The notes under the pieces were generated by a model, which was not told the DNA's origin, searched no databases, and saw only the letters and a program-made list of their open reading frames with translations. From Nitrospirota bacterium (GTDB taxonomy: Bacteria; Nitrospirota; Nitrospiria; JACQBZ01), in the NCBI GenBank assembly GCA_016201865.1, contig JACQCA010000025.1:3551-67550 (forward strand): DNA of 64,000 nucleotides, given 5' to 3'. Both the position numbers and the translations under genes were made by a program. Every line of letters begins with the position of its first letter. Positions within the stretch are counted from its first letter, which is position 1. Shown in pieces: positions 17,826 through 58,205 of this stretch.

Positions 17826-18965
17826 ATGGCATTAGAAGGCTCACTAAAGGATTTCGGTCTGGCCGATATTCTTCAATTGATCGGTCTCCAGAAAAAGACC
17901 GGGGTATTGACAATGAAGAATCCATCGACCGAGGCAAAGGTCCTGTTCGAAAACGGTTCCGTGGTTCTGGCGGACACGGCCCAACTTAAAGGGCTGGAGA
18001 AAATCGGCGAGGTTTTAGTTCGGGTCGGACTTATCTCTCAAGATCAACTCAAACAGGCTATTGCTAAACAGCGGTATAGTCACAAAAAAATAGGGATCAT
18101 TCTTGTCGAAATGGGGGCCCTTAAAAAGGAAGATCTGGTCAAGGCGCTTGGACTTCGCGTTAAAGAGACGGTCCTGAGCCTGTTTAAATGGAAAGAGGGC
18201 CGGTATCGTTTTGAGGCTTCCGAGGTCGAGTATGAGCGCGACTACTGTCCTCTCATGAACACCGAATTTATTATCATGGAGGGAGTCCGGCAATTGGATG
18301 AATGGCCGTATATCAAGAAAATCATTCCGAACCTCGATCTGATTTTCGGCAATAACAGCGACCATACGGAAAAGGCCGTACAGATCAAGGCTTCACAGGT
18401 GTCCGTCGACGATCTGAACGAGAAGATTCAAATCACGCAGGATGAGATGAGCGTTTACCGACTTGTGGACGGACAAAAAAATGTCCGAGACCTCATCGAA
18501 CTGAGCCAGTTGGGTGAATTTGAAACATGCAAGGCATTAAGCAGCCTGTTGACGGTCGGTCTGATTCTGCAGAAGCCCATTGCGGAAATGCCGATAACGG
18601 AACCGGAGAAGCCCATCGGTATGGAATTAAAGCGACTCCGGTTTACCGGTCAACTTATTTATAATGGATTGATTATCGCAGTATGCCTTATCCTGCTCGG
18701 TCTTGGCATTAAAAACATGACTTATGAAATCCCTGCAACCGTCTATTTAATAAAGCAATACCATGACCTGAGGGTTCAGAACCGGTTGATGCAGATCCGT
18801 TTCTCGATTGAGACTTACTATTATCGGAATAATCGGCTGCCGGAATCATTGGAAAAGCTTTTTCAAGAAGGTTATATTCACAACGGAGTCGGGGAGTTTT
18901 CTTATGAACCCCACCCTGACTCGTCTACGTTTGATCTTCAACTAAAGGCAAGACAGAATAACTAA
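17826..18965 (+). CDS. DUF4388-domain protein with a C-terminal TM helix and a pseudopilin-like tail
   Basis: N-terminus GSLKDFGLADILQLIGLQKKTGVLT (DUF4388/PATAN-type motif). TM LIYNGLIIAVCLILLGLGI. Lower GC than flanks. Confidence 0.6.
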   Translation: MALEGSLKDFGLADILQLIGLQKKTGVLTMKNPSTEAKVLFENGSVVLADTAQLKGLEKIGEVLVRVGLISQDQLKQAIAKQRYSHKKIGIILVEMGALKKEDLVKALGLRVKETVLSLFKWKEGRYRFEASEVEYERDYCPLMNTEFIIMEGVRQLDEWPYIKKIIPNLDLIFGNNSDHTEKAVQIKASQVSVDDLNEKIQITQDEMSVYRLVDGQKNVRDLIELSQLGEFETCKALSSLLTVGLILQKPIAEMPITEPEKPIGMELKRLRFTGQLIYNGLIIAVCLILLGLGIKNMTYEIPATVYLIKQYHDLRVQNRLMQIRFSIETYYYRNNRLPESLEKLFQEGYIHNGVGEFSYEPHPDSSTFDLQLKARQNN

Positions 18966-21892: not shown

Positions 21893-21936
21893 TCCAAAAA
21901 GGCCCCGTTCAGATCCGTGAACGGGGCCTTTTTATT
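21893..21936 (+). terminator. Rho-independent terminator after htrA
   Basis: GGCCCCGTTC-8nt loop-GAACGGGGCC followed by TTTTTATTT. Confidence 0.7.
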
Positions 21937-21955
21937 TATAAACATAAAGCTAATC

Positions 21956-21984
21956 TTGGCAGGCCGAATGGTCTGTGATATGAT
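21956..21984 (+). promoter_or_regulatory. Sigma70-type promoter with extended -10 (TTGGCA-17nt-TGaTATGAT) ending 6 nt before the ATG of the giant gene. Predicts a leaderless or near-leaderless mRNA
   Basis: TTGGCA 21956-21961, TGa 21976-78, TATGAT 21979-21984, ATG at 21991, no Shine-Dalgarno in between. Confidence 0.5.
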
Positions 21985-21990
21985 GGGCGC

Positions 21991-24060
21991 ATGAAACGGC
22001 TCCGGTTTGATGTCATCGTCATCGGCTGCGGACCCGCGGGCGCGACCGCCGCCGTGACACTGGCGCGTGCCGGTCTTTCCGTCCTTGTTTTAGAGGCCGG
22101 TGTGTACGCCGGCGCAGAGAACTGGTCCGGCTGCGTCTATTTCGCAGAAAACCTGGCCCGGCCCGACGCCTTCGGAGAAGAGGCCGTTTTAGCCGCTCCT
22201 TATGAACGCCGCTTGGTCCGCCGCGGAATCTTCCTTTATAATGGATTGGATCTCCTCGGACTTTCCTATCACAATTGGGACACCTTCCGGCATTGTTATA
22301 CCGTCCTCCGCCCGGTGTACGACCCTTACTGGGCCGGACTGGCCGAAAACCATGGGGCGATGGTTCTGCCGAAAACCACCGTGACCTCCCTGATCCGCCG
22401 GGGCGGCCGCGTGATCGGCGTCGAAACGGAACATGGACCGGTTTATGCCGAGGTGACCTTCATCGCCGAGGGCGACGCCTCGCATCTCATCCGTCGGGAA
22501 CGCCTGGAGCGCGTGAGCGCTCCGCATTTCATGCAAGGGGTCAAGGCCGTCCTGAACCTTCCGCCGTCGGTTATTGAAGAACGCTTTCGCCTTCTTCCCG
22601 GAGAAGGCTGCGCTTACGAATACCTGATCCGAAACGGCCGGATCGGCGGCCAGACGCTCCATCTGAACATCGGCGCTTTTCTGTACACCAACCGGAATTC
22701 CCTCTCGTTCGGATATGTCGTTCCGCTGGATAATTTAAAGGAAGCCTACCGCGGGGATCACGCGCGGCTTTTGGAATGGCTTCGCGGGCTCCCTCATTTT
22801 CGTTCGCTTCTTTCAGGATCCACGCTGTCGGCCTATGGCGCAAAGCTGATCCGGAGCGGCGGGTTGAAAGAACAGCCGATCTTGGTGGAGGACGGTCTGG
22901 CGGTGGGCGGCGCCGCAACCGGTCTTGGGATCGATCTCCCCTATCCAAACTTTACCGGTCCGGCCTCGGCCAGCGGCTTGATCTTCGCCCGCGCCGTCCG
23001 TCGCCTGCTCTCGGACGGACGACCGATCACGGCCGACCGGCTGCGTCAGGCCTATCTCGAACCGCTTCAGGCCGGCGTCTACGGACTCAACGCGGCCTTC
23101 TTGTCCGATTGGCCGGATTACTTGGAATCCAGCCGGACTCTTTTCGGCCGCTCGGTCGATCTGGCCTGCGGCTCGGTCCATTTTCTGACGCAGCCGAAGG
23201 CCCGTCTACGGCGAACGGCGCGTTTCCTCCGCGGACAGATGACGATCAAGGCCGCGCGCGAGCTTTTGAAAGACACGTTGCGTATGATGCGGGCATCGGG
23301 ACTTCGATCGGCGCTTTCCGGAAGTTTCCGTCTTTCCCTCATGGGTCGTTGGATTGCGAATCAGTTCAGGCCGGATCGAAAAACCGATTCCGGTTTCTCG
23401 ATCACGTTCCTATCGGCGGATGGAAATCCGGCCGAGATCCGAAATCTGCCCTGGCCGCTCCGAGGTCTGCTGGCCCGACTGTCTCCCGGACTGGCCGAAG
23501 GGATGAAAACCGTCTACGCCAATGACGGAAAGCCGATGTCCGAGAAATTTCGAGAAATGACCGAGGCCGTTCTACGGCGACTCAGACTCACGGACGGCAT
23601 TCTTCTCCCCGCCGTTATCCTTTATATCGTCGTCCTGGCCGCGGCCACGGCCTTGCTCGATTTTATTCGGTACTATTTTTTCCGTTGGCCGGTCGAAAAA
23701 GTTTTGGGCGGAGCGGTATCGGACTACCTCCAGGCGCAACAAACGGCGCAGGATCTGGATCAGGTCAAGACGGTCGATTCGTTCGAGACCAAGCTGGCGG
23801 CCAACTCCTATCACATCGGACGACGATCGCATATTCGCGTCCTCTGGCCTGCGGAACCGGCCCGTCACGGCGATTTGGCCCAGTCCCCGCTTTGGTCGGT
23901 CTGCCCGGCCCGGGTTTATCAATACGATCCGCCGTTGATCGGCCGCGGCATCGTGACGATCAATTACGAAAACTGCATCAAGTGTGAAACCTGCTGGCAT
24001 GCCGCGGACGATCCCGTGCGATGGGGACGGCACACCGATCACCGATTAATCTATCGGCCG
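21991..24060 (+). other. Domain module 1 of the giant CDS: ETF-QO/FixC-like FAD oxidoreductase, a hydrophobic membrane-anchor segment (23587-23679) and a FixX-like 4Fe-4S ferredoxin motif (23902-24000)
   Basis: GxGxxG Rossmann at residues 10-15. Helix LLPAVILYIVVLAAATALLDFIRYYFF. Cys at residues 638, 662, 665, 668. Confidence 0.75.
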
Positions 24061-27000
24061 GAATCGGACGCCTTGGACATTCTTATCGCCAAAGAGGCCT
24101 CATCGTCCCGGCCTCATCCGCCCCGAGAAAAATCATTCGGGACGTCGCCCCAAACTCTTTCAATTCTTCGAGAAGCGTTGCCCAAGGAAACGCTTGATGC
24201 GTTGTCCGAATCGGTCGCGTCCGCACTTCAGGCCGTCCGTGCGTTCGAGACCGCGGTGGACCATCTTCCGGCTTCGGCCGATGCAACCCGGCGTGAATGG
24301 CCGCGCAAGATCGGCGTGACGGCATTGCGGCGCATTGAAGATCTTGCCGTCCGGCTCTCCACCGGGGAGGTTCGTAAAATCTTTTCATCTCTTGAGATTC
24401 CGGCCGAGACGCTGACCGAATGGCTCCAGATTTTGGAGGACGACCGCAAGGATCTCGATCACCAACTTTCGATCGGCCAGGAATTCCATGCCCTCTCGGC
24501 CGCGCGCCGAATCCGCGAGGAGGTTCTGACGGATTTAAATGAGATCATGGGGCATCGAACAAGCCCGACGTCCCTCCCGCCGATTTCGGAAGATCGGTAT
24601 CGGACACCGCTCCATGACCGGATCTCGGCGCTGTTTCCGGACCGCATCGTCAAGACGTGGGAAGAGGCCCCGATTCCCCACGATGCCCGAGAACGCCTAC
24701 TGTTTCTGTTCATGGAGCAGGCCGAACGACCGCTTCCACTGATTCGAGCCCTTTCGTCCGTGAACCCCGCACTGGGACTGTTAGCGAGCCGACAGATGGA
24801 AGCGTCGGCGATTCTAAAACAGACCCATCAGCCCCTTCGTCCCGATCTATGCGCCGTGGACGGCGAGGGTCTTTCCATGATGGTCACGCCTCAGGGACTA
24901 AAAATGGACGGAGCGCTTGAACTCGTTCCCCTCGCTTTATCACGCATGTTGCTTCTGACCAAGCAAGATCAAGCATGGATCATCCCTCTCGATCAGGCCG
25001 GGCTCAAAACAATTTCCACACCGGCCATCGGGTTTCGTTCGGCCGGGTTTCACCGACTGGAATTCAACGGCGTCATGGTACCCGGCCCGGCCTTGCCGAC
25101 CGGCGATGCGCCGCGGCAGCGGGCGTCCGGCTACGCCGCCATCGCTCTCGGAGCGGCCGATTATCTAACGCGTCGCGCCAAGGAGCATGCCGAAGGCCGC
25201 GTCCAGTTCGGCCATCAGATGCGGGACACGCAAGGCCGAGACGGGATCGCAAAGCTCGGCGCTGTGAAGGCCATGATCGCACGGATCGAGGCCTGGCATC
25301 TCCTCCTCTCGGTCCTTCTTGATTCCTCCGAACCCCGGCCGGATCTTTATGCGACGATTGCGGCTATGGCCTTCGGTCCGGAGGCGGGACAGATGGGATA
25401 CGACGCCGGGCAGATCTTCGGCGGAATGGCCTATTCCGAGGACGACCTCCTATCCCGCGCCTATCGTGACAGCGCCCTTTTTCGATACCTTTTGCCCGGA
25501 TTCGGCGTCGCGAGCCGTCTGATGAATCGGCTTCAAGGAACGTCCGGCGCGCTTGAATCATTGGATGACGCAACAGCCCGGATCTTCAAGCGGGTTCAAA
25601 ACGGGCCGATGGCGGATGCGGCCGCGCGGTGGAAAGAAAATGCAAGGCGTTGGGAAGCGCTTGCTTCCACAAGCGATCCGGCTAAGGCCGGGGAAGCCGC
25701 CGCGTTGCTTTTAGGATCGCGTCTTGTTTTGTGCGACATTCAGGAACGACTCGAAGCGGGATACTCGGTCGAAGGAGATGCGGCCGCAAGCACCGTGCTG
25801 ATCGGCCTGGCAGAACAGTCGGCGGATGTGATGGATCTCCTTCGCCGCGATGCTCCCCGACCGCCGTTAGCGGTCTTTCCGGAGCGGCCGGATCGGGAAC
25901 GCGTGGATCTTCCGCTGCGCTATGAGGAGATCTGCAATCCCTCGTCCGATCGTCCGGCGCCGCCCTACTCGTCCGGCCGGTATTTGACCGAGGCCTTTGA
26001 TCCCGCGCCTCGTTTTGTCCCGGAGATTCAGATCCATGACCCGTCGCTTCGAAAACGATGGGAAGACTGCAGCGACTGGTTCATTAAAAATTTCTGGACC
26101 AAAAGCTTTGAGGGGATGCATGTCGAGCGTTACGTCGAAAAGATTCACGGCATTCCCAAGGGCGTCCTCTACGGTTTTAAAGAAAACGGTTACTTTTCGA
26201 CGATCATCCCTCAAGAATTAGACGGCGGTGATTGGTGGAAGGCCGAATATTATATCCTGACCGCCGCGGCCGGTCGCTTCGGCGATGCGGGTCTGCTTTT
26301 AGTGATCATGGCCAGCACAAGCATCGGGACGACGCCGATGCTGTTGGGTCTGTATAAAGAGCTTCCGCTCGCGGCGGAGGAACTCGAACCCTTGGCCCAC
26401 GATCCACGACAGCTCGGCGAGATCGGCGGCCGCTTGAACGCCTTGATCGCCGGATTGAAACGTCCGGACCCCGGCCGAATCAAGAAGGACTTCACGGATT
26501 TGATGTCTCTGGTGGATTCGCGCATCCGTCATACCCGGGTCGTAAAATATCTTGCGGCCAACTTCCTCAAGGTTTTTTACGCCGCCGGAATCGCCGGGCA
26601 ACGACGGGATCTGGACGGCTTCGCACGAGGCCTGAAGGAGGCCCAGACCCTTTTCGATCACCTGAACCCGACGATCGGCGAGGCCCTGGCCGAGCTCCCG
26701 CGACGCGAGCGGGCCCATCAATTTTTCTTAAAAAAACTTGGGCATGGCGGAATCAGCGCCTTCGCGCTGACCGAACCGACGGCCGGCTCCGACACCGGCG
26801 GCGTGAAGACCTCGGCCCGGCCGATGAGCCGTCTGCTGACTCCTCTTGAGGATGGACGCTGTCGTTTCAGCTTAACGGAAGGCAAAACTCCCGACGACAA
26901 GTCAGCGCGGTATCTAATCGACGCCGACCGGATTCGGTTCGAGGCCAGACCGGGTTCACCTGTCATGGCGTACGAACTCTCTTCCGGCGAGGTCGTTCCG

Positions 27001-30000
27001 ATCTGCTGTGATGAATACAATTATGACACGGACGAGGGCCTGCGGTATTACCTCTTTGAAAATAAAAAGCGATGCTTTCATGATATCGCGCAAATCCGTA
27101 ACCGTGAAGGAAAACCGGTTTATGACTATTACGAACTGACCGGCGCAAAGATGTGGATTACAAACGGGCATGTGGCGACGCAATTTTGCTTATATGCGCA
27201 ATCCCCGGAGGGCGTGACGGGTTTCATCGTGGATCGTCATGCCGAGGGCCTAAAGGTCGGCGCCGATGAGCGGAAAATGGGGCAACGCGGCTCCCCAACC
27301 AACGAGATCGCGATCGACCAGGTCCGCGTCCCAAAGGAATGCATCATCGGCTACGAAGGCCACGGCCAGGTGAATGCACTTGAGACCTTGAATGTCGGCC
27401 GCTGCGGCCTGGCCGTCGCCTCGATTACGTTGATGCGGAAACTCTTGATCGAGGCGATCGAACAGGTTCCGGCTTCGCGAGAACGGGATGATCGTCTCTG
27501 CGAAGCGGCGGCCATTCTGTTCGGATCCGACTCGATGACATTTCACCTCATCGGCCTGTTTGACCGGCAGACGACCGAATCGGTCCGAATGGAATCGGCA
27601 ATCGCCAAGTACGCCTGTTCGGAAGACCTACACGAACTCACCGCCCTCGTCGAGCAGGCCTACGGTCCGGCCGGGACGACCGAACGGTATCGCGTCGAGA
27701 AGATCCGGCGGGATTCCCGGATTCTCAATATCTACGAAGGAACCAACGAGGTCCAACGTTTCCTGATCTTAAAAGACCTCGTCGCGATGGTGAAGGAATG
27801 GAAGCCGCTCCCGATTCCGGAGGGTTCGGATGCCGAGTCGCGTCTGGCCTTCTGGAAAGAAAGGCTTCGGGACCATGTGAAGACGGCCTCGGACCTTTTA
27901 GGCGACACGGTCTGGATGGACGCGATCCTTCAGCCGACCTACTTCCCGCTGGCCGATATGGCCGGTGAAATCTTCCGTCTGGATTGTTTGACCTACCGGA
28001 TCCGATGGCTCAAAGAAAACCGCGAACGGCTGGGGCCGGATTATACCGATCCCCTCCTCGCCGTGGGTGAGAGAGCCGTCCGGCGATGCGAACACCGCCT
28101 CTCGGCGCTTGACCGACGGTATCACCGAAATGCGGAGCGATCCGTCAGGGGCCTCTACGCATCGGAAGCGGTTGCGGCGGACGCGGCTCTGGAACGGATC
28201 GGGAGGAAGGCTCCGGACGATTCACCGCCCTTTGTCGGACTGAAACGTCCTTTGAATATCCTCTGCCTTCTCCGCCTGACGGCCGAGGTCGCTCCGATCC
28301 CTCGACTCCATGAAGGACGGCTTTCGGAAATCGTCTGGCGGTTCAACCCGACGGATGAGGCCGCGGTCCGTTCGGCTGTCCGATTAAAAGAGATCAGCCG
28401 TTCAGACGTGACGGTTCATCTCGTCATGCCCGGGGAACAGGATAAGGAACGTCATCTTCGATGGGCGCTCGGCAGCGGCGCGGATGCCGTCTACCGGATC
28501 AACGCCCCGGTGACGGCCGACGGACCGGTTTTTGTCGAGGCGATTTCCGAACTTGAAAAATCCGGGAAGTACGACCTGATCCTGACCGGCTCATTTTCGG
28601 AAGACGGCGGGGAACCGCTCGGGCCGTTCGTGGCCGGGGCCGTATCGCGTTTTTTTGCGAGGACTTCTTCAATCGAGGTCGTCAATGACGGGCTTGAACT
28701 CGCCGTAGGAACCGGTCCAAGTCGGTCAAGCCTGCAACTCCTGCCGAAAGAGCCGGTCGTTCTGGCCTGGGAGCGGACCGCGGCGCCGCTTCCGGTCGAG
28801 ATGAACCGATTGATCGAGGGGCAGTTGGCCCGCATCGAACGCCTGTCGGTTCGGGAGAAGATCGTTTCCGATCGGTGGGTTCCCGCTCGAGCCGTCGTCA
28901 GAAAAAGCAAAACGATCCGTGAACTGGCCGGTGTGGCCGATCATCTCAAAACCTATCTGGCCGAAGCTCGCGCGATGAAGGCCGAACCTTATTCATCAAA
29001 GATCATCGAGATGCCGCTTCCGGCCGGGCCGGCGGTCTGGACGGTGATCGAAGCGCTTCAGCCCAAGGCGATTCCGGCCCTCGTTGGCGCGGCAAGTTTC
29101 TTGGGTCGGTCGCTGGATCAAGAAAGTTATGCCGTTGTGCTGGGATCGGAGAAAACCTGGCCCCAGCTTGTGGGTCTGGCACGGGCCCGCGGACTGACCG
29201 GGGCGGTTTGTGTCCCAACTCCCGACGGTCCATTAACCGAATCGGGACGGCTGGAATGGCTCAAAAAATTTGCGGGTCTTGCCCACGACCTTCGGATTGT
29301 ATGCGGTCCAGGCTGGGCCGATGCCCTTTCCTATCAGTCGGGCCGACTCAACGGAAAACGATCCATGCTTTTCACCGACGTGATCGAAATAGACCGGCGT
29401 GAAGGGCTTCTGCTTTACAAGTCGGCCTATCACGGAAAATTACGACGTTCCATCACTCTGACACCGTCCCAGACACCGATGGCGTTCATGACGGTCTCCC
29501 CGACCGCGGATTTCCAGTCGGGCGGACCTTCGTCCCGTTTCACGGCCGCGACAGCCGACAATAAAATACTGGCCGTCCATCCCGACTGGTTCGAGTCAAC
29601 GCCTCCGGTTGCGCAGGATGACTTGACCTCGGCCGAGGTGATTATTGATGTCGGATACGGTGTTCGGAATCAGGAAGGGTTCAGCCTGACGGTTCAACTT
29701 AAAGAGACGCTTGAGCGAATGGGTCTGACGGTCCATCTGGGGGCCACCCGAAAGGTAACGCAGGATCTGAAACTTCTTCCGCTCGATCATCAAATCGGCC
29801 AGACCGGCGTGCGAGTGAACCCGAAACTGATCCTGGCGCTCGGAATTTCCGGCGCGCCGCAGCATATGGACTACATCGGCGACCGCGCCGTGATTTTCGC
29901 CTTCAACAAAGATCCCGAGGCCCCGTTGATGAAATTCAACGAGACCCGTCCGGCCCCGATCATCCACCCCATCGTGGGCGATCTGTTCGAGACGATTCCG

Positions 30001-30027
30001 AAATTAATTACGATGCTGTCTGCGTGA
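21991..30027 (+). CDS. Giant 2,678-aa multidomain flavoprotein. N-terminal ETF:quinone oxidoreductase/FixC-FixX-like module, then a degenerate ACAD-like module, a canonical acyl-CoA dehydrogenase, an EtfB-like module and an EtfA-like module, all in one reading frame
   Basis: Continuous 8,037-nt ORF with recognisable family motifs along its whole length: VIVIGCGPAGATAA (FAD); CPARVYQY...NCIKCETCWH (4Fe-4S); ALTEPTAGSDTGGVKTSA, GAKMWITNG, IYEGTNEVQRFLI (ACAD); NPTDEAAVRSAVRLKE (EtfB); LGISGAPQHMDYIGDRAVIFAFNKDPEAPLMKF...IVGDLFETIPKL (EtfA FAD signature). Confidence 0.9.
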   Translation: MKRLRFDVIVIGCGPAGATAAVTLARAGLSVLVLEAGVYAGAENWSGCVYFAENLARPDAFGEEAVLAAPYERRLVRRGIFLYNGLDLLGLSYHNWDTFRHCYTVLRPVYDPYWAGLAENHGAMVLPKTTVTSLIRRGGRVIGVETEHGPVYAEVTFIAEGDASHLIRRERLERVSAPHFMQGVKAVLNLPPSVIEERFRLLPGEGCAYEYLIRNGRIGGQTLHLNIGAFLYTNRNSLSFGYVVPLDNLKEAYRGDHARLLEWLRGLPHFRSLLSGSTLSAYGAKLIRSGGLKEQPILVEDGLAVGGAATGLGIDLPYPNFTGPASASGLIFARAVRRLLSDGRPITADRLRQAYLEPLQAGVYGLNAAFLSDWPDYLESSRTLFGRSVDLACGSVHFLTQPKARLRRTARFLRGQMTIKAARELLKDTLRMMRASGLRSALSGSFRLSLMGRWIANQFRPDRKTDSGFSITFLSADGNPAEIRNLPWPLRGLLARLSPGLAEGMKTVYANDGKPMSEKFREMTEAVLRRLRLTDGILLPAVILYIVVLAAATALLDFIRYYFFRWPVEKVLGGAVSDYLQAQQTAQDLDQVKTVDSFETKLAANSYHIGRRSHIRVLWPAEPARHGDLAQSPLWSVCPARVYQYDPPLIGRGIVTINYENCIKCETCWHAADDPVRWGRHTDHRLIYRPESDALDILIAKEASSSRPHPPREKSFGTSPQTLSILREALPKETLDALSESVASALQAVRAFETAVDHLPASADATRREWPRKIGVTALRRIEDLAVRLSTGEVRKIFSSLEIPAETLTEWLQILEDDRKDLDHQLSIGQEFHALSAARRIREEVLTDLNEIMGHRTSPTSLPPISEDRYRTPLHDRISALFPDRIVKTWEEAPIPHDARERLLFLFMEQAERPLPLIRALSSVNPALGLLASRQMEASAILKQTHQPLRPDLCAVDGEGLSMMVTPQGLKMDGALELVPLALSRMLLLTKQDQAWIIPLDQAGLKTISTPAIGFRSAGFHRLEFNGVMVPGPALPTGDAPRQRASGYAAIALGAADYLTRRAKEHAEGRVQFGHQMRDTQGRDGIAKLGAVKAMIARIEAWHLLLSVLLDSSEPRPDLYATIAAMAFGPEAGQMGYDAGQIFGGMAYSEDDLLSRAYRDSALFRYLLPGFGVASRLMNRLQGTSGALESLDDATARIFKRVQNGPMADAAARWKENARRWEALASTSDPAKAGEAAALLLGSRLVLCDIQERLEAGYSVEGDAAASTVLIGLAEQSADVMDLLRRDAPRPPLAVFPERPDRERVDLPLRYEEICNPSSDRPAPPYSSGRYLTEAFDPAPRFVPEIQIHDPSLRKRWEDCSDWFIKNFWTKSFEGMHVERYVEKIHGIPKGVLYGFKENGYFSTIIPQELDGGDWWKAEYYILTAAAGRFGDAGLLLVIMASTSIGTTPMLLGLYKELPLAAEELEPLAHDPRQLGEIGGRLNALIAGLKRPDPGRIKKDFTDLMSLVDSRIRHTRVVKYLAANFLKVFYAAGIAGQRRDLDGFARGLKEAQTLFDHLNPTIGEALAELPRRERAHQFFLKKLGHGGISAFALTEPTAGSDTGGVKTSARPMSRLLTPLEDGRCRFSLTEGKTPDDKSARYLIDADRIRFEARPGSPVMAYELSSGEVVPICCDEYNYDTDEGLRYYLFENKKRCFHDIAQIRNREGKPVYDYYELTGAKMWITNGHVATQFCLYAQSPEGVTGFIVDRHAEGLKVGADERKMGQRGSPTNEIAIDQVRVPKECIIGYEGHGQVNALETLNVGRCGLAVASITLMRKLLIEAIEQVPASRERDDRLCEAAAILFGSDSMTFHLIGLFDRQTTESVRMESAIAKYACSEDLHELTALVEQAYGPAGTTERYRVEKIRRDSRILNIYEGTNEVQRFLILKDLVAMVKEWKPLPIPEGSDAESRLAFWKERLRDHVKTASDLLGDTVWMDAILQPTYFPLADMAGEIFRLDCLTYRIRWLKENRERLGPDYTDPLLAVGERAVRRCEHRLSALDRRYHRNAERSVRGLYASEAVAADAALERIGRKAPDDSPPFVGLKRPLNILCLLRLTAEVAPIPRLHEGRLSEIVWRFNPTDEAAVRSAVRLKEISRSDVTVHLVMPGEQDKERHLRWALGSGADAVYRINAPVTADGPVFVEAISELEKSGKYDLILTGSFSEDGGEPLGPFVAGAVSRFFARTSSIEVVNDGLELAVGTGPSRSSLQLLPKEPVVLAWERTAAPLPVEMNRLIEGQLARIERLSVREKIVSDRWVPARAVVRKSKTIRELAGVADHLKTYLAEARAMKAEPYSSKIIEMPLPAGPAVWTVIEALQPKAIPALVGAASFLGRSLDQESYAVVLGSEKTWPQLVGLARARGLTGAVCVPTPDGPLTESGRLEWLKKFAGLAHDLRIVCGPGWADALSYQSGRLNGKRSMLFTDVIEIDRREGLLLYKSAYHGKLRRSITLTPSQTPMAFMTVSPTADFQSGGPSSRFTAATADNKILAVHPDWFESTPPVAQDDLTSAEVIIDVGYGVRNQEGFSLTVQLKETLERMGLTVHLGATRKVTQDLKLLPLDHQIGQTGVRVNPKLILALGISGAPQHMDYIGDRAVIFAFNKDPEAPLMKFNETRPAPIIHPIVGDLFETIPKLITMLSA
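24655..25500 (+). other. Domain module 2: degenerate acyl-CoA-dehydrogenase-like fold lacking the YEGT catalytic signature
   Basis: ACAD-like C-terminal helix region GQIFGGMAYSEDDLLSRAYRDSALFRYLLPG, where canonical ACADs have ...IYEGT.. Confidence 0.55.
26090..27790 (+). other. Domain module 3: canonical acyl-CoA dehydrogenase with the catalytic YEG Glu retained
   Basis: ISAFALTEPTAGSDTGGVKT, GAKMWITNG, GQRGSPTNEIAIDQVRVP, ILNIYEGTNEVQRF. Confidence 0.85.
28240..28850 (+). other. Domain module 4: electron-transfer flavoprotein beta-subunit-like (EtfB/FixA-like)
   Basis: VWRFNPTDEAAVRSAVRLKE...GADAVYRI...DLILTGSFSEDGGEPLGPFVAG. Confidence 0.7.
28990..30024 (+). other. Domain module 5: electron-transfer flavoprotein alpha-subunit-like (EtfA/FixB-like) including the FAD-binding C-terminal domain
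   Basis: QIGQTGVRVNPKLILALGISGAPQHMDYIGDRAVIFAFNKDPEAPLMKF...PIVGDLFETIPKL. Confidence 0.85.
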
Positions 30028-30150: not shown

Positions 30151-30591
30151 ATGAATCAGTCCCTTCCCCTCCGTTCTCCCCGCGAAACTCTCGGCGGCTA
30201 TGTATTTCTTCCGCGGCTGATCGACAAGGTCCGGTTGCATGCGGAAGGAAAACTCCCGACGGAATACGTGGGCAATCTCCTTAAACCGGGATTGACACTG
30301 GATGGACGTCTTCTCACCTTCACCGGACTAGATGCAGAGGAATTGCGACGCGCGATTTTAGCCGTGAAGACGGATGAGGAAGTTCTGGTTTGGGTGGAAC
30401 GCCATGCGAAGCCGCACACCAAGACTGAAAAACAGCAATGGATTGCGGAAATCGAGGTTTATCGACCGAACATGGAGTGGGCACAGTGGCGAAGAGCGGT
30501 TTACAAAGAAGTCGCCGCTAAAGTCGATCCGGCCACGCTGAATGTTTTTGATCTGATCGATATGGACGAAGGCCGTGTTCCGATGAAATAA
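30151..30591 (+). CDS. DUF5069-family hypothetical protein
   Basis: LRSPRETLGGYVFLPRLIDKVRLH motif. 146 aa. Confidence 0.55.
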   Translation: MNQSLPLRSPRETLGGYVFLPRLIDKVRLHAEGKLPTEYVGNLLKPGLTLDGRLLTFTGLDAEELRRAILAVKTDEEVLVWVERHAKPHTKTEKQQWIAEIEVYRPNMEWAQWRRAVYKEVAAKVDPATLNVFDLIDMDEGRVPMK

Positions 30592-35170: not shown

Positions 35171-36094
35171 TCAGCGTTTCCTGGGTTTGCGAATCTTCTC
35201 TTTTTTCAGTACGCTCTTGACGGCTTCGCCGATCACGGCCGGGTTTCGGACGACTTTCACACCGGCCTCTTCAAGCGTTGCGATTTTCTGTGCCGCCGTT
35301 CCCTTGCCGCCCGAGATGATCGCGCCGGCATGGCCCATCCGCCGGCCGGGCGGAGCCGTTACCCCGGCGATGAAACCGACGACCGGTTTCGTGACATGGG
35401 ACTTGATATAATCGGCTGCGCGTTCCTCGGCATCCCCCCCGATCTCGCCGATCATCACGATCGCCTCGGTGTTCCTGTCTTTCTGAAACAGTTCAAGAAC
35501 GTCCGTGAAATTCGTCCCGTTTACCGGGTCGCCGCCGATCCCGATGCAGGTGGACTGCCCAAGACTGAGCTCGGTCAACTGCCAGACCGCTTCATAGGTC
35601 AGCGTGCCGCTGCGGGAGACGACCCCCACCGAACCTTTTTTATGGATGAAGCCCGGCATGATCCCGATCTTGCATTCCTCCGGGGTAATGATCCCGGGAC
35701 AGTTGGGACCGATCAGACGGATCGTGCGTTTCCCGTTGTCTGAGGCCGTTTTTCCGGCGATGAACCGTTTTGCGCGGATCATATCGGCCAACGGGATTCC
35801 CTCGGTGATGCAGACGATCAGGCCGATTCCGGCATCGGCCGCCTCCATGATCGCGTCGGCTGCAAACGCCGGCGGCACAAAGATCATCGAGACATCGGGC
35901 TTCACGGCCTCCACGGCCTCCGATACCGTGTTGAAGACCGGAACCCCTTCAAACGCGGTTCCCCCTTTTCCGGGAGTCACACCGCCGACGATCTTCGTCC
36001 CGTACTCGCGGCAGGCCGCGGCATGGAACGATCCTTCCTTGCCCGTGATTCCCTGGACGACGACTTTGGTATTTTTGTTGACGAGGATGCTCAT
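35171..36094 (-). CDS. sucD: Succinyl-CoA synthetase alpha subunit with an unusual Lys-rich C-terminal tail ([11 protein letters not shown])
   Basis: [24 protein letters not shown]..., CoA-binding and phosphohistidine loop (SGTLTYE). Confidence 0.95.
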
Positions 36095-36096
36095 GC

Positions 36097-37281
36097 CTAT
36101 CCCTTTTTCGTTTTCTCTGCCTGCTTAATCCCCATCTGAACGACGCCGCCCCGCTGTCCGACCCAGACATTCCGTTCGGAATCGACCGTGACGGCATAAA
36201 CATCGTCGCCGATCAGACCGTCCGCCTTTGTATAGCTCTTCCAGGCCGTTCCATTAAAGCTCGACACGCCGTGATTGGTTCCGACCCAGATCAGCCCTGA
36301 CGGATCGCGTTCCAAGGCATAGACGACATTCCCGGATAATCCCTGTTGGGTGGTGTAGTTCGTCCAGCGCTTCCCGTCGAAGCGGCTGACGCCGCCGCCC
36401 CAGGTGCCGAACCATTTATCGCCGCGGGCATCGATCATGATCGTGAAAATATAATTTTCGTTGTAGGTCTCTTTTCCTTTATCATCCAAAACACTCAGGT
36501 CATGGAAGTGGCCGGCGTAACTCCGCCCCGGCGCTAATTCTACACCGGGATTCTCCTGCAGGGCCTCATACGCTTCTCCCGACGTCTTTTTTCGGGCGAG
36601 GGCCAATTCGTTGGGAGCCCCCAGACCGTCCTTATGGGTATAGGCGGCCCACTGTTTTCCGGCCGGAGCCGCAGGATCAAACCGATTCACGCCCTCCTCG
36701 GTGCCGAACCAAAGCGACCGGTCGCGATCCACCGCCAGACCGTAGACCCATTTATTCACGAGTCCGTCTTTGGTGTTGTACGTCGCGAATCGGGATCCTT
36801 CGGGAGCGGACGGATCGTATCGGGTCACGCCGTCCCACGTCGCGATCCACATGCCGCCGTCGGGATGAAAATCAATGTCGTACACCCATAAATCGGACAG
36901 CCCGTCCTGTTTGCCGAAAGCCGTCCAGGCGGCTCCGTCAAAACGGAGCAGACCGCCGGCATCCGTTCCAAACCACAATCCTCCTTTTGCATCCTTATTA
37001 ATCGTGAAGACGTAGTTGCTCGTCAAACCGTCGTTTTTGGTATAGGTCCGGACGAGCCCGCCGTTGACGCGATTGACCTTGATGATTCCGGTAGACGTTC
37101 CGACCCATAAAAAAGCGCCGTCCGACTTCAGCGCGCGAACCACATTGCCCGGACCCGTGTTGAAACTCGCCATGACCTTGTAGTCCGGCATGGGCGGACT
37201 TTTTTGGGCGCAGCCCCAGAAAAGTAAAAGGCTGCTCAGGATAACGACGATCGGTCGGCGCGGTTGTCGGCGGGTTGACAT
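36097..37281 (-). CDS. Lipoprotein built of two-component-regulator-propeller (Reg_prop) repeats, inserted between sucC and sucD
   Basis: Lipobox LLLFWGC. At least 6 repeats of the type [15 protein letters not shown] / [18 protein letters not shown] overlaps the sucC TGA (TGATG). Stop is 2 nt before the sucD ATG. Confidence 0.8.
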
Positions 37282-38444
37282 CAGGATTGAATGAGGCTGA
37301 CGATCTTCTGGGCCCCCTCCCACATCGTCCGCGCCACGATAAGGTTCAGTCCGGATTCGGCGAGCATCTGCCGCGCCTCCTCGGCGTTCGTCCCTTCCAG
37401 CCGCACAACCAGCGGAACCTTGATGGCGACCTCTTTTGCGGCATCCATTACGCCGCCAGCGATCCGCTCGCATCGGACGATCCCGCCGAAGATATTGATG
37501 AAGACTCCCTTGACATTCCGGTCCGACATCAGAATCGTGAAGGCCTGCTTCACGGTTTCCTTCGAGGCGCCGCCCCCCACATCGAGGAAGTTGGCCGGGA
37601 AGGAACCGGCGAGCTTGATCGTGTCCATGGTGGCCATCGCCAGGCCGGCCCCGTTCACCATGCAGCCGATGGCCCCATCGAGTTTGACGTAGTTCAGACC
37701 GTATTGCGAAGCCTGAATCTCGAGAGGGTCTTCCTCGTCAAGATCGCGGAGCGCCTTGATGTCGTCATTCCGGTAAAGCGAATTATCGTCAAAGGTCACC
37801 TTGGCGTCCAATGCGATCAACTTTTGATCTCGGGTGACAACGAGCGGATTGATTTCGACCACGGAAGCGCCCTTTTCCATGAAGAGACGATAGAGGTTTC
37901 CCAACATAAGGACGAAGAGGCCGATGATCTCTTTTGCGAGCCCCAGGCGATAGGCCAGCATCCGTCCGTGAAAGGCCTGATAGCCGGCGGACGGATCGAT
38001 CAGGGCTTTGAGAATTTTCTCGGGCGAATGGGCCGCGACTTCTTCAATCTCCATGCCGCCCGCACGGCTCGCGATGAAGACGGGCCAGCCCGAAAACCGG
38101 TCTACGAGGAGGCTCACGTACAGTTCGCTCGCGATATCCGCGCCCTCTTCAATCAAAAGACGCTTCAACTTGCGTCCTTCCGGGCCGGTCTGATGGGTAA
38201 CGAGGACCTTTCCCAGAAGCTCCTTCGCCAGCGTTTCGACCTGCGCGCGCTCCTTGGTCAGCTTGACGCCGCCGGCCTTCCCCCGTCCGCCGGCATGAAT
38301 CTGGGCCTTTACCACATAGACGGAGGATTGAAGCTGGTCGGCCCAAGCTTTCGTCTCCTCGACTGTGGCGACGGCCTTCCCGCGTGGCACGGGGATATTA
38401 AACTGAGTAAAGAGCTGCTTGGCCTGGAATTCGTGGATGTTCAT
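37281..38444 (-). CDS. sucC: Succinyl-CoA synthetase beta subunit (ATP-grasp)
   Basis: MNIHEFQAKQLFTQFNIPVPRG... 387 aa. Confidence 0.95.
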   Translation of the reverse strand: MNIHEFQAKQLFTQFNIPVPRGKAVATVEETKAWADQLQSSVYVVKAQIHAGGRGKAGGVKLTKERAQVETLAKELLGKVLVTHQTGPEGRKLKRLLIEEGADIASELYVSLLVDRFSGWPVFIASRAGGMEIEEVAAHSPEKILKALIDPSAGYQAFHGRMLAYRLGLAKEIIGLFVLMLGNLYRLFMEKGASVVEINPLVVTRDQKLIALDAKVTFDDNSLYRNDDIKALRDLDEEDPLEIQASQYGLNYVKLDGAIGCMVNGAGLAMATMDTIKLAGSFPANFLDVGGGASKETVKQAFTILMSDRNVKGVFINIFGGIVRCERIAGGVMDAAKEVAIKVPLVVRLEGTNAEEARQMLAESGLNLIVARTMWEGAQKIVSLIQS

Positions 38445-45978: not shown

Positions 45979-47592
45979 TTATTGTTTCGCCGCCGCGGCG
46001 GGCATGATTTCGGCGCGGCGGACGTAATCGGGAAGGATGATCGGTGCGATCCGTTTCGGCTTGATTCCGTTCTTCTCCAGTTCCTTCTGGAACCGGGTCA
46101 CATGGGACAGCGTCAGCTTTCCGGCTGGAACCGATTTCGCACGCTGGGCGGCCGCGGCGCCCGCCCGCTTTCCGAAAACGATTAAATCCAGAAGCGAATT
46201 TCCCATCAAGCGGTTCCGGCCGTGCAGCCCGCCGGATGCTTCTCCGGCGACGAACAGCCCCTGGGTCTGGGACTGCCCGTCCGTATCAATCGCCACGCCG
46301 CCGTTCTGGTAATGAAGCGTAGGATAGATCAGCACCGGCTCTTTTCGAATATCAATCCCGTACCGCTCAAACTGCCGGACCATCGCCGGGAAGCGCTTTG
46401 TGATGTTTCCCTCGCCCAATAGTAGATCGATCATCGGAATGTCGAGCCAGACCCCGACCCGTCCGGCCGGCGTCTTCACACCCCGGCCCTCGGCGCATTC
46501 ACGTATGATCGACGCGGCCACGACGTCGCGTGTATCGAGTTCGTTAACGAACCGCTTGCCGTTCCGGTTGACGAGATGTCCGCCGTCGGAGCGGATGCCT
46601 TCGGTCACGAGCGCGCCGGCCAGCTGTTCCGGAAAAACGGCCCCGGTGGGATGGTACTGAAAGGTGTCGGCATGGGCCAGCTTCGCGCCGGTGCGATAGG
46701 CCAGAACCAGCGCGTCGCCGGTCGCGCCATAGTGATTGCTCGTGGGAAAACCCTCGATATGAAGCCGTCCGGAGCCGCCCGTCGCCAGGATGACCGACTT
46801 GGCTTCGACCACGATGAACTGGTCGTTGTCCATATTTTTGAGCACCGCGCCGGAGCATCGCCCGTCCGGATCGGTCAGCAGCTCCACCACGGGTGAGAAC
46901 TCCAGGATCGGGATCCGTTGGTTTAAGACCTCGTCCTTAAGCACACGCATGATCTCAAGGCCGGTATAATCGCTGCAGGTGAGAAGCCGCGGCTTTGTGC
47001 TACCGCCGCCTTTCTTCGTCTTGAGGTTTCCGCTCTCGTCCCGGTCGAACAGAACCCCGAGCCCGATCAGCCACTGCGCGGCCTTCGGGCCCTCTTCCAC
47101 CAGGACCTTGAGAAGCTTTGGATCGTTCTTGAGATGTCCGCCTCGAAGCGTGTCGAAGAAATGGGTCACGGGCGAATCATCCTCGGTGATCGCGACCTGC
47201 ATCCCGCCCTGGGCCATGACCGTATTGGAATCGCCCATTCGCAGCTTGGTCACGAGCAGAACGTCCGCTCCAAGCGCCTTGGCCGTCAGCGCGGCCGTCG
47301 CCCCCGCCCCGCCCCCGCCGACCACCAGCACATCCACACGGTACTGCGGCGTAAGATCGAGATCTGCCGGAACGGGACTGTCCGATTCCAGAAGCTCGGC
47401 CACCTCCCGCACGGTTCGTTCGCCCGCGTTGGGACCGGTCTGGATTTTGTGATACTCTTCTTTTTTATAATCGGGATGGAATGCGCGGACCAGCCGGTCC
47501 CGTTCCTCCGGCGACTGGATCGGAACGGTCTGCTTGCGACGTTCGTCGCGTTCGTGGATGACCTTGCTTTTTGATTCGGCGATGACGTCCAT
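45979..47592 (-). CDS. FAD-dependent fumarate reductase/succinate dehydrogenase flavoprotein-like protein with a ~95-aa N-terminal extension
   Basis: VDVLVVGGGGAGATAAL (Rossmann). His/Arg capping-domain motifs (HYQNGG..., FVAGEASGGLHGRNRLMGNSLLD). Confidence 0.8.
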   Translation of the reverse strand: MDVIAESKSKVIHERDERRKQTVPIQSPEERDRLVRAFHPDYKKEEYHKIQTGPNAGERTVREVAELLESDSPVPADLDLTPQYRVDVLVVGGGGAGATAALTAKALGADVLLVTKLRMGDSNTVMAQGGMQVAITEDDSPVTHFFDTLRGGHLKNDPKLLKVLVEEGPKAAQWLIGLGVLFDRDESGNLKTKKGGGSTKPRLLTCSDYTGLEIMRVLKDEVLNQRIPILEFSPVVELLTDPDGRCSGAVLKNMDNDQFIVVEAKSVILATGGSGRLHIEGFPTSNHYGATGDALVLAYRTGAKLAHADTFQYHPTGAVFPEQLAGALVTEGIRSDGGHLVNRNGKRFVNELDTRDVVAASIIRECAEGRGVKTPAGRVGVWLDIPMIDLLLGEGNITKRFPAMVRQFERYGIDIRKEPVLIYPTLHYQNGGVAIDTDGQSQTQGLFVAGEASGGLHGRNRLMGNSLLDLIVFGKRAGAAAAQRAKSVPAGKLTLSHVTRFQKELEKNGIKPKRIAPIILPDYVRRAEIMPAAAAKQ

Positions 47593-47604
47593 AGGCGAGC
47601 TTTC

Positions 47605-48312
47605 CTATTTAGACGGTTGCCCGGCGGCTTTTAATTCCTCTTCGCTCATAGAGAGGATCTTTTTCCATTCATCCGTGTATTTGCCGGACCGGATCTCGTC
47701 AACCCGGCGGGTGAGATTCTGCGGCGGCGCCGTCAGACGGGCCCCGTGCGCGCGGCTGGCGTAAAGCGCGACATGGTTCGGGGCGATGTCGGCGATGCAG
47801 ACCGGAATGCACTGGCCGCACATCACGCAGTCCATGAACATCTCCGAGACCTTCTGAAAATCGCCGAAGACCGCCTTCCAGACGCCGTCCCGCACGTCGA
47901 TCCCCTGCGGACAGGCCTCGGTGCAGGCGTTGCAGTTCCGGCAGAGCGAGGCTTCGGGATAGATCTTGAACAGCTCCTGTTTCGGATCGGAAATCTGATC
48001 CAGATCGTAGATCGACTTGCGGTTCGGGTAATAGGAGAAATTCAGAAAGAAGGACATCCCGTCCTCGACCAGCATCTGGCAGGCCAGCGTGTTTCGAAGA
48101 CGGACGTCGTCCTTCGTCCGGTACGTGGCGGCGCAGGCCCCGCAGAAGCCGCCGAGACATCCCGCGCCGCGAACAACCTCATGCCCGGTATACCACATCG
48201 CCCGCAGCATTGTAAGCCCGTCGGGCACGGAATACGGCCGGCCCATGATCTCGACCGTGATCATCCGGCTCTGTGCGCCGATCGTACTCTCGTGAACGCG
48301 TTCAGTCATCAT
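47605..48312 (-). CDS. SdhB/FrdB-like iron-sulfur subunit (2Fe-2S plus two Cx2Cx2Cx3C clusters)
   Basis: CLGGFCGAC; CRNCNACTEACP; CVMCGQCIPVC. Confidence 0.8.
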   Translation of the reverse strand: MMTERVHESTIGAQSRMITVEIMGRPYSVPDGLTMLRAMWYTGHEVVRGAGCLGGFCGACAATYRTKDDVRLRNTLACQMLVEDGMSFFLNFSYYPNRKSIYDLDQISDPKQELFKIYPEASLCRNCNACTEACPQGIDVRDGVWKAVFGDFQKVSEMFMDCVMCGQCIPVCIADIAPNHVALYASRAHGARLTAPPQNLTRRVDEIRSGKYTDEWKKILSMSEEELKAAGQPSK

Positions 48313-48321
48313 TCCTTCCGA

Positions 48322-50568: not shown

Positions 50569-50641
50569 GGAAGGCTCCCTTCCTCATTATCGTCTGGAAA
50601 TTTCATTCTAACGGGCCGCCGCAGCGATAGTCAACGGATAT

Positions 50642-53748: not shown

Positions 53749-53817
53749 TTAATGCCTCCTGTCCCTTCAAATTCTCATGGTTTCGGCATTGATGAACGTC
53801 TCAGAAAAGGAAGGGAT

Positions 53818-53846
53818 ATTGTAGCCAGTTTTATCGTTATTCTCAA
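53818..53846 (-). promoter_or_regulatory. Sigma70-type promoter TTGAGA-17nt-TACAAT on the minus strand driving aclBA
   Basis: Minus strand TTGAGA (plus 53841-53846) and TACAAT (plus 53818-53823), 17-nt spacer. Confidence 0.5.
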
Positions 53847-53848
53847 CA

Positions 53849-53886
53849 GAAAAAAAGACCTATCGGCTAAGACCCGAATAGGTCTT
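53849..53886 (-). terminator. Rho-independent terminator (minus strand) after the lipoprotein gene
   Basis: AGACCTAT-loop-ATAGGTCT followed by TTTTTTT on the minus strand. Confidence 0.55.
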
Positions 53887-53895
53887 TAGACCCAT

Positions 53896-55161: not shown

Positions 55162-55420
55162 CGATCGGGATGGCCGGCATGGTTAGGAATTGAACCGATC
55201 CTCGCGAGCCGAGCTCTACCGAGATCTTTGCGATGGCCTTATTATCCTTGGCCTCGATGATATTCACGAAGTCATACGGACCGAGAAGCGCATACTGGGC
55301 CACCACTTTGGCCCCCATCGTCTCGATTTCTTTATTCACCTGATTGATGCGGCTGGGCTTGGCCTTGATCGTTTTCCGGCCCTGATCGGTCAATGTGCTG
55401 AGCAAGACATAGGTCGGCAT
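55136..55420 (-). CDS. GYD-domain protein
   Basis: MPTYVLLSTLTDQGRKTIK...GPYDFVNIIEA... 94 aa. Confidence 0.7.
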   Translation of the reverse strand: MPTYVLLSTLTDQGRKTIKAKPSRINQVNKEIETMGAKVVAQYALLGPYDFVNIIEAKDNKAIAKISVELGSRGSVQFLTMPAIPIDEFITSLK

Positions 55421-55498
55421 GGTGAATCCTCCTTATGGTTAGAAGTCGGTGGAAGGAATGACCGGACAGCTTTAGATTACTCCGTTCGGGAAAGTTTT

Positions 55499-58205
<2,707 letters not shown>

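Follow-up and report, generated by a model that had tools for sequence, protein, structure and literature searches.

A 64,000-nucleotide stretch of a Nitrospirota genome (GenBank assembly GCA_016201865.1, contig JACQCA010000025.1, positions 3,551 to 67,550 of the forward strand; hereafter the window) carries a gene whose 2,678-residue product is a genuine, widely conserved fusion of acyl-coenzyme A (acyl-CoA) dehydrogenase (ACAD), electron transfer flavoprotein (ETF) and quinone reductase, functions that usually reside on four or five separate proteins. The gene (21991..30027, plus strand) is a single open reading frame (ORF) that starts with ATG and runs for 2,678 codons with no internal stop, giving a predicted product of ~290 kDa. 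Hidden Markov models, Protein Data Bank (PDB) structures and AlphaFold models place along this chain, in order, a FixC-like domain, a hydrophobic segment, a [4Fe-4S] domain of the FixX/ETF:quinone oxidoreductase (ETF-QO) type, an apparently dead ACAD, an active ACAD, EtfB and EtfA. More than 240 distinct full-length relatives (2,500–2,950 residues, 32–75% identity) occur in metagenome genomes of Nitrospirota, Acidobacteriota, Gemmatimonadota, Planctomycetota and Verrucomicrobiota, and the entire length, linkers included, is alignable among them.

We hold with moderate confidence that the gene encodes a self-contained, membrane-associated acyl-CoA:quinone oxidoreductase. The active ACAD (ACAD-2), with flavin adenine dinucleotide (FAD) and the catalytic residue Glu1916, would oxidize acyl-CoA to 2-enoyl-CoA, and the preceding ACAD fold (ACAD-1) would act as the second subunit of the ACAD dimer, supplying FAD-contacting residues in trans. 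The attached ETF (EtfB plus EtfA) would accept electrons singly on the FAD of its mobile head domain. This EtfA head is predicted to act as a swinging arm that carries electrons from the ACAD flavin to the FixX/ETF-QO-type domain, whose single [4Fe-4S] cluster would pass them to the FixC FAD and on to a membrane quinone. Three FADs and one [4Fe-4S] cluster are predicted per chain. A working second flavin has probably been lost from the ETF base, and for this reason the enzyme would not bifurcate electrons. The direction of transfer, the swinging arm, the pseudo-dimer role of ACAD-1, the membrane association, and the presumed substrate and quinone are modelled on separate families, namely Thermotoga maritima EtfABCX and canonical ETF. 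The chemistry itself is probably conventional.

The components and their chemistry are known, but the all-in-one architecture is undescribed. Among the partial fusions already on record, ETF-QO is in effect FixC plus FixX, and some EtfAs carry ferredoxin domains. A literature search of incomplete coverage found no description of one protein uniting ACAD, ETF and quinone reductase, in keeping with an earlier note on this DNA that had not recognized the arrangement. Two features of the fusion appear to be derived: the use of a pseudo-ACAD as half of a dimer, and an ETF base in which the usual hallmarks of the nucleotide site are missing.

Domain architecture

Several Pfam families score above their gathering thresholds in the window protein: FAD Rossmann families at residues 5–150, Acyl-CoA_dh_M at 1712–1778, Acyl-CoA_dh_1 at 1791–1929 and in a second stretch, ETF at 2116–2216 (44 bits) and ETF_alpha at 2544–2626 (67.6 bits). 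Two others fall below threshold. Fer4_ETF_QO (residues 631–668) reaches 16.4 bits against a cut-off of 24, and is present among the precomputed Pfam hits of several relatives; Acyl-CoA_dh_N (residues 1380–1451) is weakened by an insertion in ACAD-2. No NCBIfam model spans the whole protein. Conservation is given below over 45 full-length homologues (33–76% identity), and ETF-site motifs over 46 sequences; all module coordinates refer to the plus strand.

Residues 1–445 (21991..23325) form a FixC/EtfC-like FAD-dependent quinone reductase domain with a GxGxxG Rossmann motif at residues 10–17. NCBIfam FixC/PRK10015 models match residues 4–318 (E 1e-44 to 1e-49), with scores of 152–167 bits for FixC (NF007542) and PRK10015 that miss the curated cut-offs of 610 and 466. 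The domain is best classed as a FixC relative, not an equivalog. T. maritima FixC (7koe_C) aligns with residues 3–334 when the single sequence is used (E 8e-32) and with residues 4–443 when a family profile is used (E 3.5e-54). This domain is the N-terminal block of highest conservation, and its Rossmann motif and FixC core are invariant among the homologues.

The only strong hydropathy peak of the protein follows at residues ~535–565 (LLPAVILYIVVLAAATALLDFIRYYFF; 23593..23685), a putative membrane anchor. A hydrophobic segment lies at the equivalent position in 42 of the 45 homologues, with no conservation of its sequence. A monotopic or re-entrant anchor is more likely than a simple transmembrane span, since both flanking redox domains must be cytoplasmic. 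The FixX/ETF-QO-type [4Fe-4S] domain occupies residues 600–695 (23788..24075). Within it, residues 609–669 align with the Fe-S segment of pig ETF-QO (2gmh; CPAGVYEF...NCVHCKTC), and the four-cysteine motif CPAxxY...NCxxCxxC is intact. The predicted ligands C638, C662, C665 and C668 (23902–23994) are invariant (45/45); because these four and C102 are the only conserved cysteines, one [4Fe-4S] cluster is expected. A helical linker region of residues 696–869 (24076..24597) is poorly conserved, gapped and without a family match.

ACAD-1 spans residues 870–1180 (24598..25530). By sequence, only its C-terminal domain is detected (residues ~1045–1170), as a weak match to ACADs (E ~3e-5), but in the AlphaFold model the alpha/beta/alpha ACAD fold is complete, with a helical bundle after it. 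The stretch YRDSALFRYLLPGFG occupies the place of the ...IYEGT motif of active ACADs, and the catalytic-base position, 1169, is Pro, Gly or Ala in the family (P1169 in the window protein). Equivalents of TEPxxGSD and WITNG, the motifs that bind an ACAD's own FAD, are also absent. On these motifs, ACAD-1 is a catalytically dead pseudo-enzyme. It keeps R1070-x-Q1072-F1073 and Q1141-x-F-G-G1145 in 45/45 sequences. The helical bundle and a linker (residues 1181–1343; 25531..26019) are seen as helices in the model and include a conserved SGxYL..PRFVPE motif just before ACAD-2; G1329, L1332, P1344 and E1345 are invariant around this junction.

ACAD-2 (residues 1344–1936; 26020..27798) is supported by Pfam, PDB and Foldseek matches and by its catalytic glutamate. 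It has the three-domain ACAD fold, the FAD motifs ALTEPTAGSD and KMWITNG, and E1916 (27736–27738) within IYEGTNEVQRF, the (I/V)YEGT context of active ACADs. E1916 is kept in 45/45 homologues, and TEPxAGSD, KMWITNG and IYEGTNEVQR are equally invariant. Residues ~1710–1930 match CarC (6fah_C, 4e-34) and VLCAD (2e-31), as well as Bcd and MCAD. The N-terminal helices of ACAD-2 are interrupted by insertions at residues ~1454–1573 and ~1613–1710 (26350–26709 and 26827–27120). Both are family-specific, the first being helical and located in the N-terminal domain and the second lying in the beta domain, and comparison with Pfam and the PDB gave no match to either. The ETF head or the membrane may dock on them. 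A VLCAD-like C-terminal helical extension and linker follow (residues 1937–2084; 27799..28242), with long helices in the model.

The AlphaFold model of the ACAD pair (residues 866–2065; predicted local distance difference test (pLDDT) 86, predicted template modelling (pTM) score 0.87) shows ACAD-2 as an ACAD core in which the N-terminal and beta domains are enlarged, with the long C-terminal extension attached. The best Foldseek matches of the pair are long ACADs, namely VLCAD, ACAD9 (2UXW, 3B96, 8PHE) and the Bacillus anthracis protein 3owa, with TMt ~0.71, and the resemblance to VLCAD and ACAD9 covers ACAD-2 with its extension. Compared with these enzymes, ACAD-2 has the two large insertions, shares ~17–18% identity, and is preceded by an inactive ACAD and followed by an ETF. 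VLCAD is membrane-associated.

The motifs lost by the two ACAD folds are complementary. R281 and Q349–G353 of MCAD are the residues by which one subunit touches the FAD of its dimer partner. The corresponding ACAD-1 motifs are invariant, whereas their counterparts in ACAD-2 are reduced to (R/Q)-x-x-G-P and to a variable stretch in which QxFGG is lost. Most simply, ACAD-1 and ACAD-2 would pair within the chain as a pseudo-heterodimer that holds one FAD, with ACAD-1 providing the missing part of the ACAD-2 FAD site. The alpha2beta2 ACADs of Mycobacterium tuberculosis cholesterol catabolism (FadE26-FadE27, ChsE4-ChsE5) likewise pair an active subunit with a partner that lacks the base and FAD site, and hold one FAD per heterodimer. 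Their halves are separate polypeptides, and the likeness to ACAD-1/ACAD-2 would be one of pairing logic within the ACAD superfamily.

The C-terminal quarter comprises an EtfB-like module (residues 2085–2335; 28243..28995) and an EtfA-like module (residues 2336–2678; 28996..30024), the latter consisting of domain I and then the FAD-binding head, domain II. Besides the Pfam hits, residues ~2116–2250 match EtfB chains and residues ~2430–2677 match EtfA chains in the PDB. An AlphaFold model of residues 2070–2678, computed from a 25-sequence alignment, reaches pLDDT 88.3 and pTM 0.88, and Foldseek pairs its halves with complete EtfB chains (TMt ~0.7) and with EtfA chains (TMt 0.55–0.70). In the EtfA head, R2587, T2605 and SGAPQH are invariant in the 45 homologues, indicating that the electron-transferring FAD site is intact. 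The EtfB module and EtfA domain I, in contrast, are the least conserved parts of the protein, with almost no invariant positions.

These Pfam, NCBIfam, PDB and AlphaFold results bear out the family order that the earlier note had read from the sequence and put forward for a domain search. Every motif it quoted is found in the translation in the order given. Its ETF-QO/FixCX-like part with a hydrophobic segment and a four-cysteine cluster is borne out by the FixC and 2gmh alignments, its degenerate ACAD followed by a canonical one by the ACAD hits and predicted folds, and its EtfB-like and EtfA-like modules by Pfam, PDB, AlphaFold and Foldseek.

The fusion contains the same kinds of redox module as the classical chain of ACAD, EtfAB and ETF-QO in mitochondria and Proteobacteria (MCAD:ETF, 1T9G/2A1T; pig ETF-QO, 2GMH), and they share the logical order ACAD FAD, ETF head FAD, one [4Fe-4S], quinone-reductase FAD and quinone. 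The four-cysteine pattern is that of ETF-QO, and the EtfA head is most similar to canonical ETF. Whereas the classical chain is made of four gene products (ACAD, EtfA, EtfB and ETF-QO), the fusion is one chain of 2,678 residues. Its quinone-reductase domain is nearer to FixC than to ETF-QO, and it has an extra hydrophobic segment and ~150 extra residues between the FixC and Fe-S parts. Its ETF base lacks conserved AMP-site hallmarks, and its ACAD appears to be a fused pseudo-heterodimer.

The T. maritima EtfABCX/FixABCX complex (7KOE) contains the best sequence relative of the N-terminal domain. Its path from ETF through Fe-S and FAD to menaquinone has the logic proposed for the fusion, and it is membrane-associated through EtfC. 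However, it consists of four separate subunits with two [4Fe-4S] clusters in EtfX, a bifurcating FAD, NADH as donor and no ACAD, in contrast to the one cluster, the unconserved bifurcating site and the two ACAD folds of the fusion. Bcd-EtfAB and CarCDE (5OL2, 6FAH) couple an ACAD physically to an ETF, and ACAD-2 has its best sequence matches in CarC and Bcd. These complexes are non-covalent, bifurcating and soluble, reduce enoyl-CoA with NADH, and contain no quinone reductase. The monomeric ETF of Sulfolobus acidocaldarius (SaETF) carries EtfB and EtfA on one polypeptide in the same order as the fusion (PMC12042025). SaETF is a stand-alone protein of ~600 residues, of the bifurcating type with two FADs, and its partner genes adjoin it (PMC12042025); the ETF of the fusion makes up only the C-terminal quarter of the chain, and its second nucleotide site is degenerate.

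The proposed electron path and its alternatives

The nucleotide site between ETF domains I and III can be compared with published hallmarks. The EtfB zipper reads D-G-D/E-T-A-Q in bifurcating ETFs and D-D-D-x-N-Q in canonical ones, EtfA Arg165 (RpaETF numbering) is conserved in 447 of 449 ETF sequences, and T94 and T97 of the EtfB motif 'ADTxAT' (RpaETF) are needed to hold the bifurcating flavin (PMC8958531). In the window protein, the zipper loop is a degenerate SEDGGEPLG (residues 2203–2211), and this loop varies across the family. The Arg165 equivalent is Lys in the window protein and T16/L8/S7/R4 across the family, with Arg in 4 of 46 sequences. The 'ADTxAT' threonine motif is absent in 46/46. 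Consequently, neither the canonical group 1 AMP site (zipper DDDxNQ and EtfA Arg) nor the bifurcating group 2 FAD site (zipper, ADTxAT and Arg165) is recognizable. The earlier note had proposed a check for a beta-FAD/NADH or an AMP site, and this comparison finds neither conserved.

Acidobacteriota and Planctomycetia members keep a 'DTGQG' zipper. A clean deletion of seven zipper residues (equivalent to residues 2203–2209) is seen in Verrucomicrobiia members (loci L033, L038, L041, L045, L048, L049, L051 and L055). On these patterns, the ETF base appears to be evolving differently between clades.

Several observations weigh against a linear, non-bifurcating acyl-CoA:quinone oxidoreductase as proposed here. 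If the redox domains on both sides of it remain in the cytoplasm, the lone hydrophobic helix cannot cross the membrane as ordinary transmembrane helices do. The evidence for the packing of ACAD-1 against ACAD-2 consists of the pTM score and motif logic. The ACAD-2 sequence gives no substrate, and the enzyme contains two large insertions. The full-length genes are without beta-oxidation neighbours. In the ETF base, RpaETF with the R165K substitution retains the binding of two FADs (PMC8958531), and the window protein, with Lys at this position, might by analogy retain some nucleotide; the 'DTGQG' zipper of the Acidobacteriota and Planctomycetia members is nearer to the bifurcating type.

An unlikely but serious alternative is that the same architecture serves another chemistry or direction. 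The substrate might be a carrier-protein-bound acyl group, or an amino-acid-derived, aromatic or alicyclic CoA ester; electrons might flow the other way, with quinol driving the reduction of enoyl-CoA; or the ETF might also serve free dehydrogenases. The NCBIfam hits would suit such a reading, as they scatter over many ACAD specificities (acryloyl-CoA reductase and cyclohexane-carbonyl-CoA, prolyl-PCP and glutaryl-CoA dehydrogenases) with none near its cut-off, and so would the family-specific insertions and the absence of adjoining beta-oxidation genes. Conversely, the catalytic Glu sits in a canonical IYEGT context within a VLCAD-like fold, the domain set exactly matches the classical oxidative chain, and a protein with a related N-terminal module lies in a cluster with FadB, thiolase and acyl-CoA synthetase genes.

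We regard as very improbable a bifurcating machine of the FixABCX or Bcd/CarC-EtfAB type, in which NADH would be oxidized at a second FAD in the ETF base, with one electron going uphill to ferredoxin, useful for the reductive tricarboxylic acid (rTCA) cycle of the host, and the other downhill to quinone or enoyl-CoA. The N-terminal domain is indeed nearer to FixC of T. maritima EtfABCX, a bifurcating complex, than to ETF-QO, and CarC, the top ACAD match, also comes from a bifurcating complex. ATP-citrate lyase and other rTCA enzymes, users of reduced ferredoxin, are encoded by the host, the 'DTGQG' loop of some Acidobacteriota and Planctomycetia resembles the bifurcating 'DTAQVG', and the Lys at the Arg165 position is positively charged.

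However, the zipper, the ADTxAT threonines and the EtfA Arg are missing or not conserved; the nucleotide site of domains I and III therefore does not appear to be a conserved catalytic site, and NADH-dependent bifurcation is unlikely. The low conservation of EtfB and EtfA domain I is contrary to what a catalytic NADH site would lead one to expect. The EtfA head scores higher against human/Paracoccus ETF-alpha (E 8e-18) than against bifurcating EtfAs (1e-12 to 1e-13). A single Fe-S cluster contrasts with the two of T. maritima EtfX, the family is widespread in phyla that are not noted for an rTCA cycle, and an ACAD and a quinone reductase both serving as high-potential exits would have no known precedent. 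Foldseek matches span canonical and bifurcating ETFs without discriminating between them, and with the sequence hallmarks negative, assignment of the module as a bifurcating ETF was rejected. Of the two functions suggested in the earlier note, the linear chain from acyl-CoA through ETF to quinone is thus favoured, whereas FixABCX-like bifurcation is disfavoured, its FAD site being unconserved.

Building on the linear acyl-CoA:quinone oxidoreductase, we tentatively raise the possibility of a new class of single-chain respiratory dehydrogenase, combining a nucleotide-free swinging-arm ETF, an obligatory dead-ACAD half-dimer and an electron path insulated from other ETF clients. If so, an ETF base needing neither AMP nor a second FAD would constitute an ETF type outside the described groups. 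A still bolder version would have the 'DTGQG' members of Acidobacteriota and Planctomycetia bifurcate, and the family descend from a FixABCX-plus-Acd ancestor.

To our knowledge, the visits of the mobile FAD domain of ETF to its donor (ACAD) and acceptor (ETF-QO/FixCX) have been seen only in separate, transient complexes. A natural 1:1:1 tether of donor, carrier and acceptor could allow the whole shuttle to be captured in one cryo-electron microscopy data set, making the fusion a good structural model for ETF electron transfer. It would also test whether covalent linkage removes the need for the AMP 'glue' of ETF, and whether ACAD dimers can give rise to active/inactive pseudo-heterodimers. 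The family is plentiful in phyla of soil, groundwater and freshwater that are difficult to culture (Nitrospirota, Acidobacteriota, Planctomycetota, Verrucomicrobiota and Gemmatimonadota), and its generic annotation probably causes metabolic reconstructions to miscount ETF and ETF-QO functions in carrier genomes. The conventional chemistry that is expected limits the surprise.

Distribution and integrity of the gene

The database entry of the window protein comes from a Nitrospirae metagenome-assembled genome (MAG) and is named 'acyl-CoA dehydrogenase family protein'. A search with this protein returned its own entry and more than 100 further full-length clusters (2,600–2,950 residues, 32–75% identity), and a second search seeded with a Gemmataceae member added another 120 full-length clusters. 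Among genomes sampled at one per GTDB species, full-length copies were present in Nitrospirota, Leptospirillia, Acidobacteriota, Gemmatimonadota, Planctomycetota (Gemmataceae and others), Verrucomicrobiota and Lentisphaerae. When the N-terminal 720 residues were compared with 1.84 billion cluster representatives, 157 matched at E <= 1e-30; among the matches listed, ~35 representatives exceed 2,200 residues, and below these are ordinary FixC-sized proteins of ~430 residues. All named carriers are MAGs, with no named cultured isolate among the homologues listed. Databases already contain hundreds of copies, labelled generically as, for example, 'acyl-CoA dehydrogenase family protein' or 'ETF-quinone oxidoreductase'.

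The N-terminus opens directly on the Rossmann motif and matches homologous N-termini residue by residue, which argues that the start codon is right and that no export signal precedes the domain; no N-terminal signal peptide is found in the 2,678-residue protein. An 8-kb frame without stops could not have arisen by chance. The ORF described in the earlier note (8,037 nucleotides, uninterrupted) is intact, and its concern about collapsed stop codons is answered by comparison: full-length conservation across phyla, alignable over the whole length, rules them out. The search for full-length versus split versions that the note had suggested yielded many full-length orthologues and one gene with the C-terminal half.

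Virtually no credence can be given to mis-assembly or mis-sequencing that lost stops or frameshifts between ordinary fixCX, acd and etfBA genes, or to a pseudogene: the contig does derive from a MAG and one homologous locus (L040) carries frameshifts typical of long-read errors, but the >240 independent full-length clusters come from different studies, platforms and phyla and are colinear throughout, the catalytic residues are invariant, and the L040 frameshifts disrupt an already fused gene and create none. The sole 'split' inspected (P0098/L040) proved to be this frameshifted long-read assembly, and with full-length orthologues widespread, an assembly artefact was rejected.

At L040 (8001–15980), from a long-read MAG, two frame changes (frames 3, 2, 3) interrupt the homologous gene and account for the 1,629-residue database 'protein' P0098. 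Short family members may therefore be sequencing artefacts. A stand-alone ACAD-2-EtfB-EtfA gene of 1,534 residues, a natural half-fusion, is found on Gemmatimonadota chromosome CP070823.1 (L066, 7638–12242). No N-terminal module lies within 8 kb of it, and the upstream genes are on the opposite strand.

Relatives of ~1,400 residues were considered as a 'split N-half' and rejected, as P0169 shares the N-terminal module and a short linker motif with the fusion but not ACAD-1. P0169 (L075, 1470–7864; L076, 1893–12194) has 1,397 residues, with a FixC-hydrophobic-FeS module at 36% identity and a non-ACAD, Ala/Arg/Leu-rich C-terminal half devoid of ACAD or ETF domains. Its gene lies 24 nucleotides downstream of a FadB-like gene (ECH and 3HCDH), with thiolase and acyl-CoA synthetase nearby, and this locus is the only contextual link to beta-oxidation. 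P0169 seems to represent a different quinone-reductase family, likewise undescribed, encoded in a beta-oxidation cluster.

Genomic context

A promoter-like site, TTGGCA-17-TATGAT with an extended TG (21956..21984, plus strand; a consensus match only), ends 6 nucleotides before the ATG of the fusion gene. This spacing suggests that the mRNA may be leaderless, and no Shine-Dalgarno sequence is found before the ATG (21908–21991). A hairpin with a T-run at ~21908–21940 is a candidate terminator of the upstream htrA-like gene. On the 3' side, GC-rich hairpins are followed by the immediately downstream gene for a DUF5069 protein (30151–30591, plus strand). A DUF4388 protein gene (17826–18965, plus strand) lies two to three genes upstream. 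Neither DUF gene is conserved beside homologues elsewhere, and an all-against-all comparison of the flanking ORFs of 42 loci found nothing common to more than 6 of them. Conserved operon partners were rejected, since clade-specific neighbours are unrelated housekeeping genes and those in the window are likewise unrelated. The absence of a conserved neighbour fits a unit that needs no partner genes.

An rTCA-type gene set lies on the minus strand at 45979–57742. It comprises the flavoprotein (45979–47592) and Fe-S subunit (47605–48312) of a fumarate reductase/succinate dehydrogenase, aconitase (48322–50568), the ATP-citrate lyase subunits (50642–52468 and 52465–53748), an unassigned 421-residue ORF (53896–55161) and a monomeric isocitrate dehydrogenase (55499–57742). 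The earlier note had remarked on rTCA genes in this organism. They are present in the window, but a specific link to the fusion is unsupported, because Acidobacteriota, Planctomycetota, Verrucomicrobiota and Gemmatimonadota have the fusion too. A sucD-like gene (35171–36094) and a sucC-like gene (37281–38444) are also on the minus strand. Between them is an ORF with Reg_prop (two-component regulator propeller) repeats (36097–37473, minus strand), which as called overlaps the sucC-like ORF by ~190 nucleotides.

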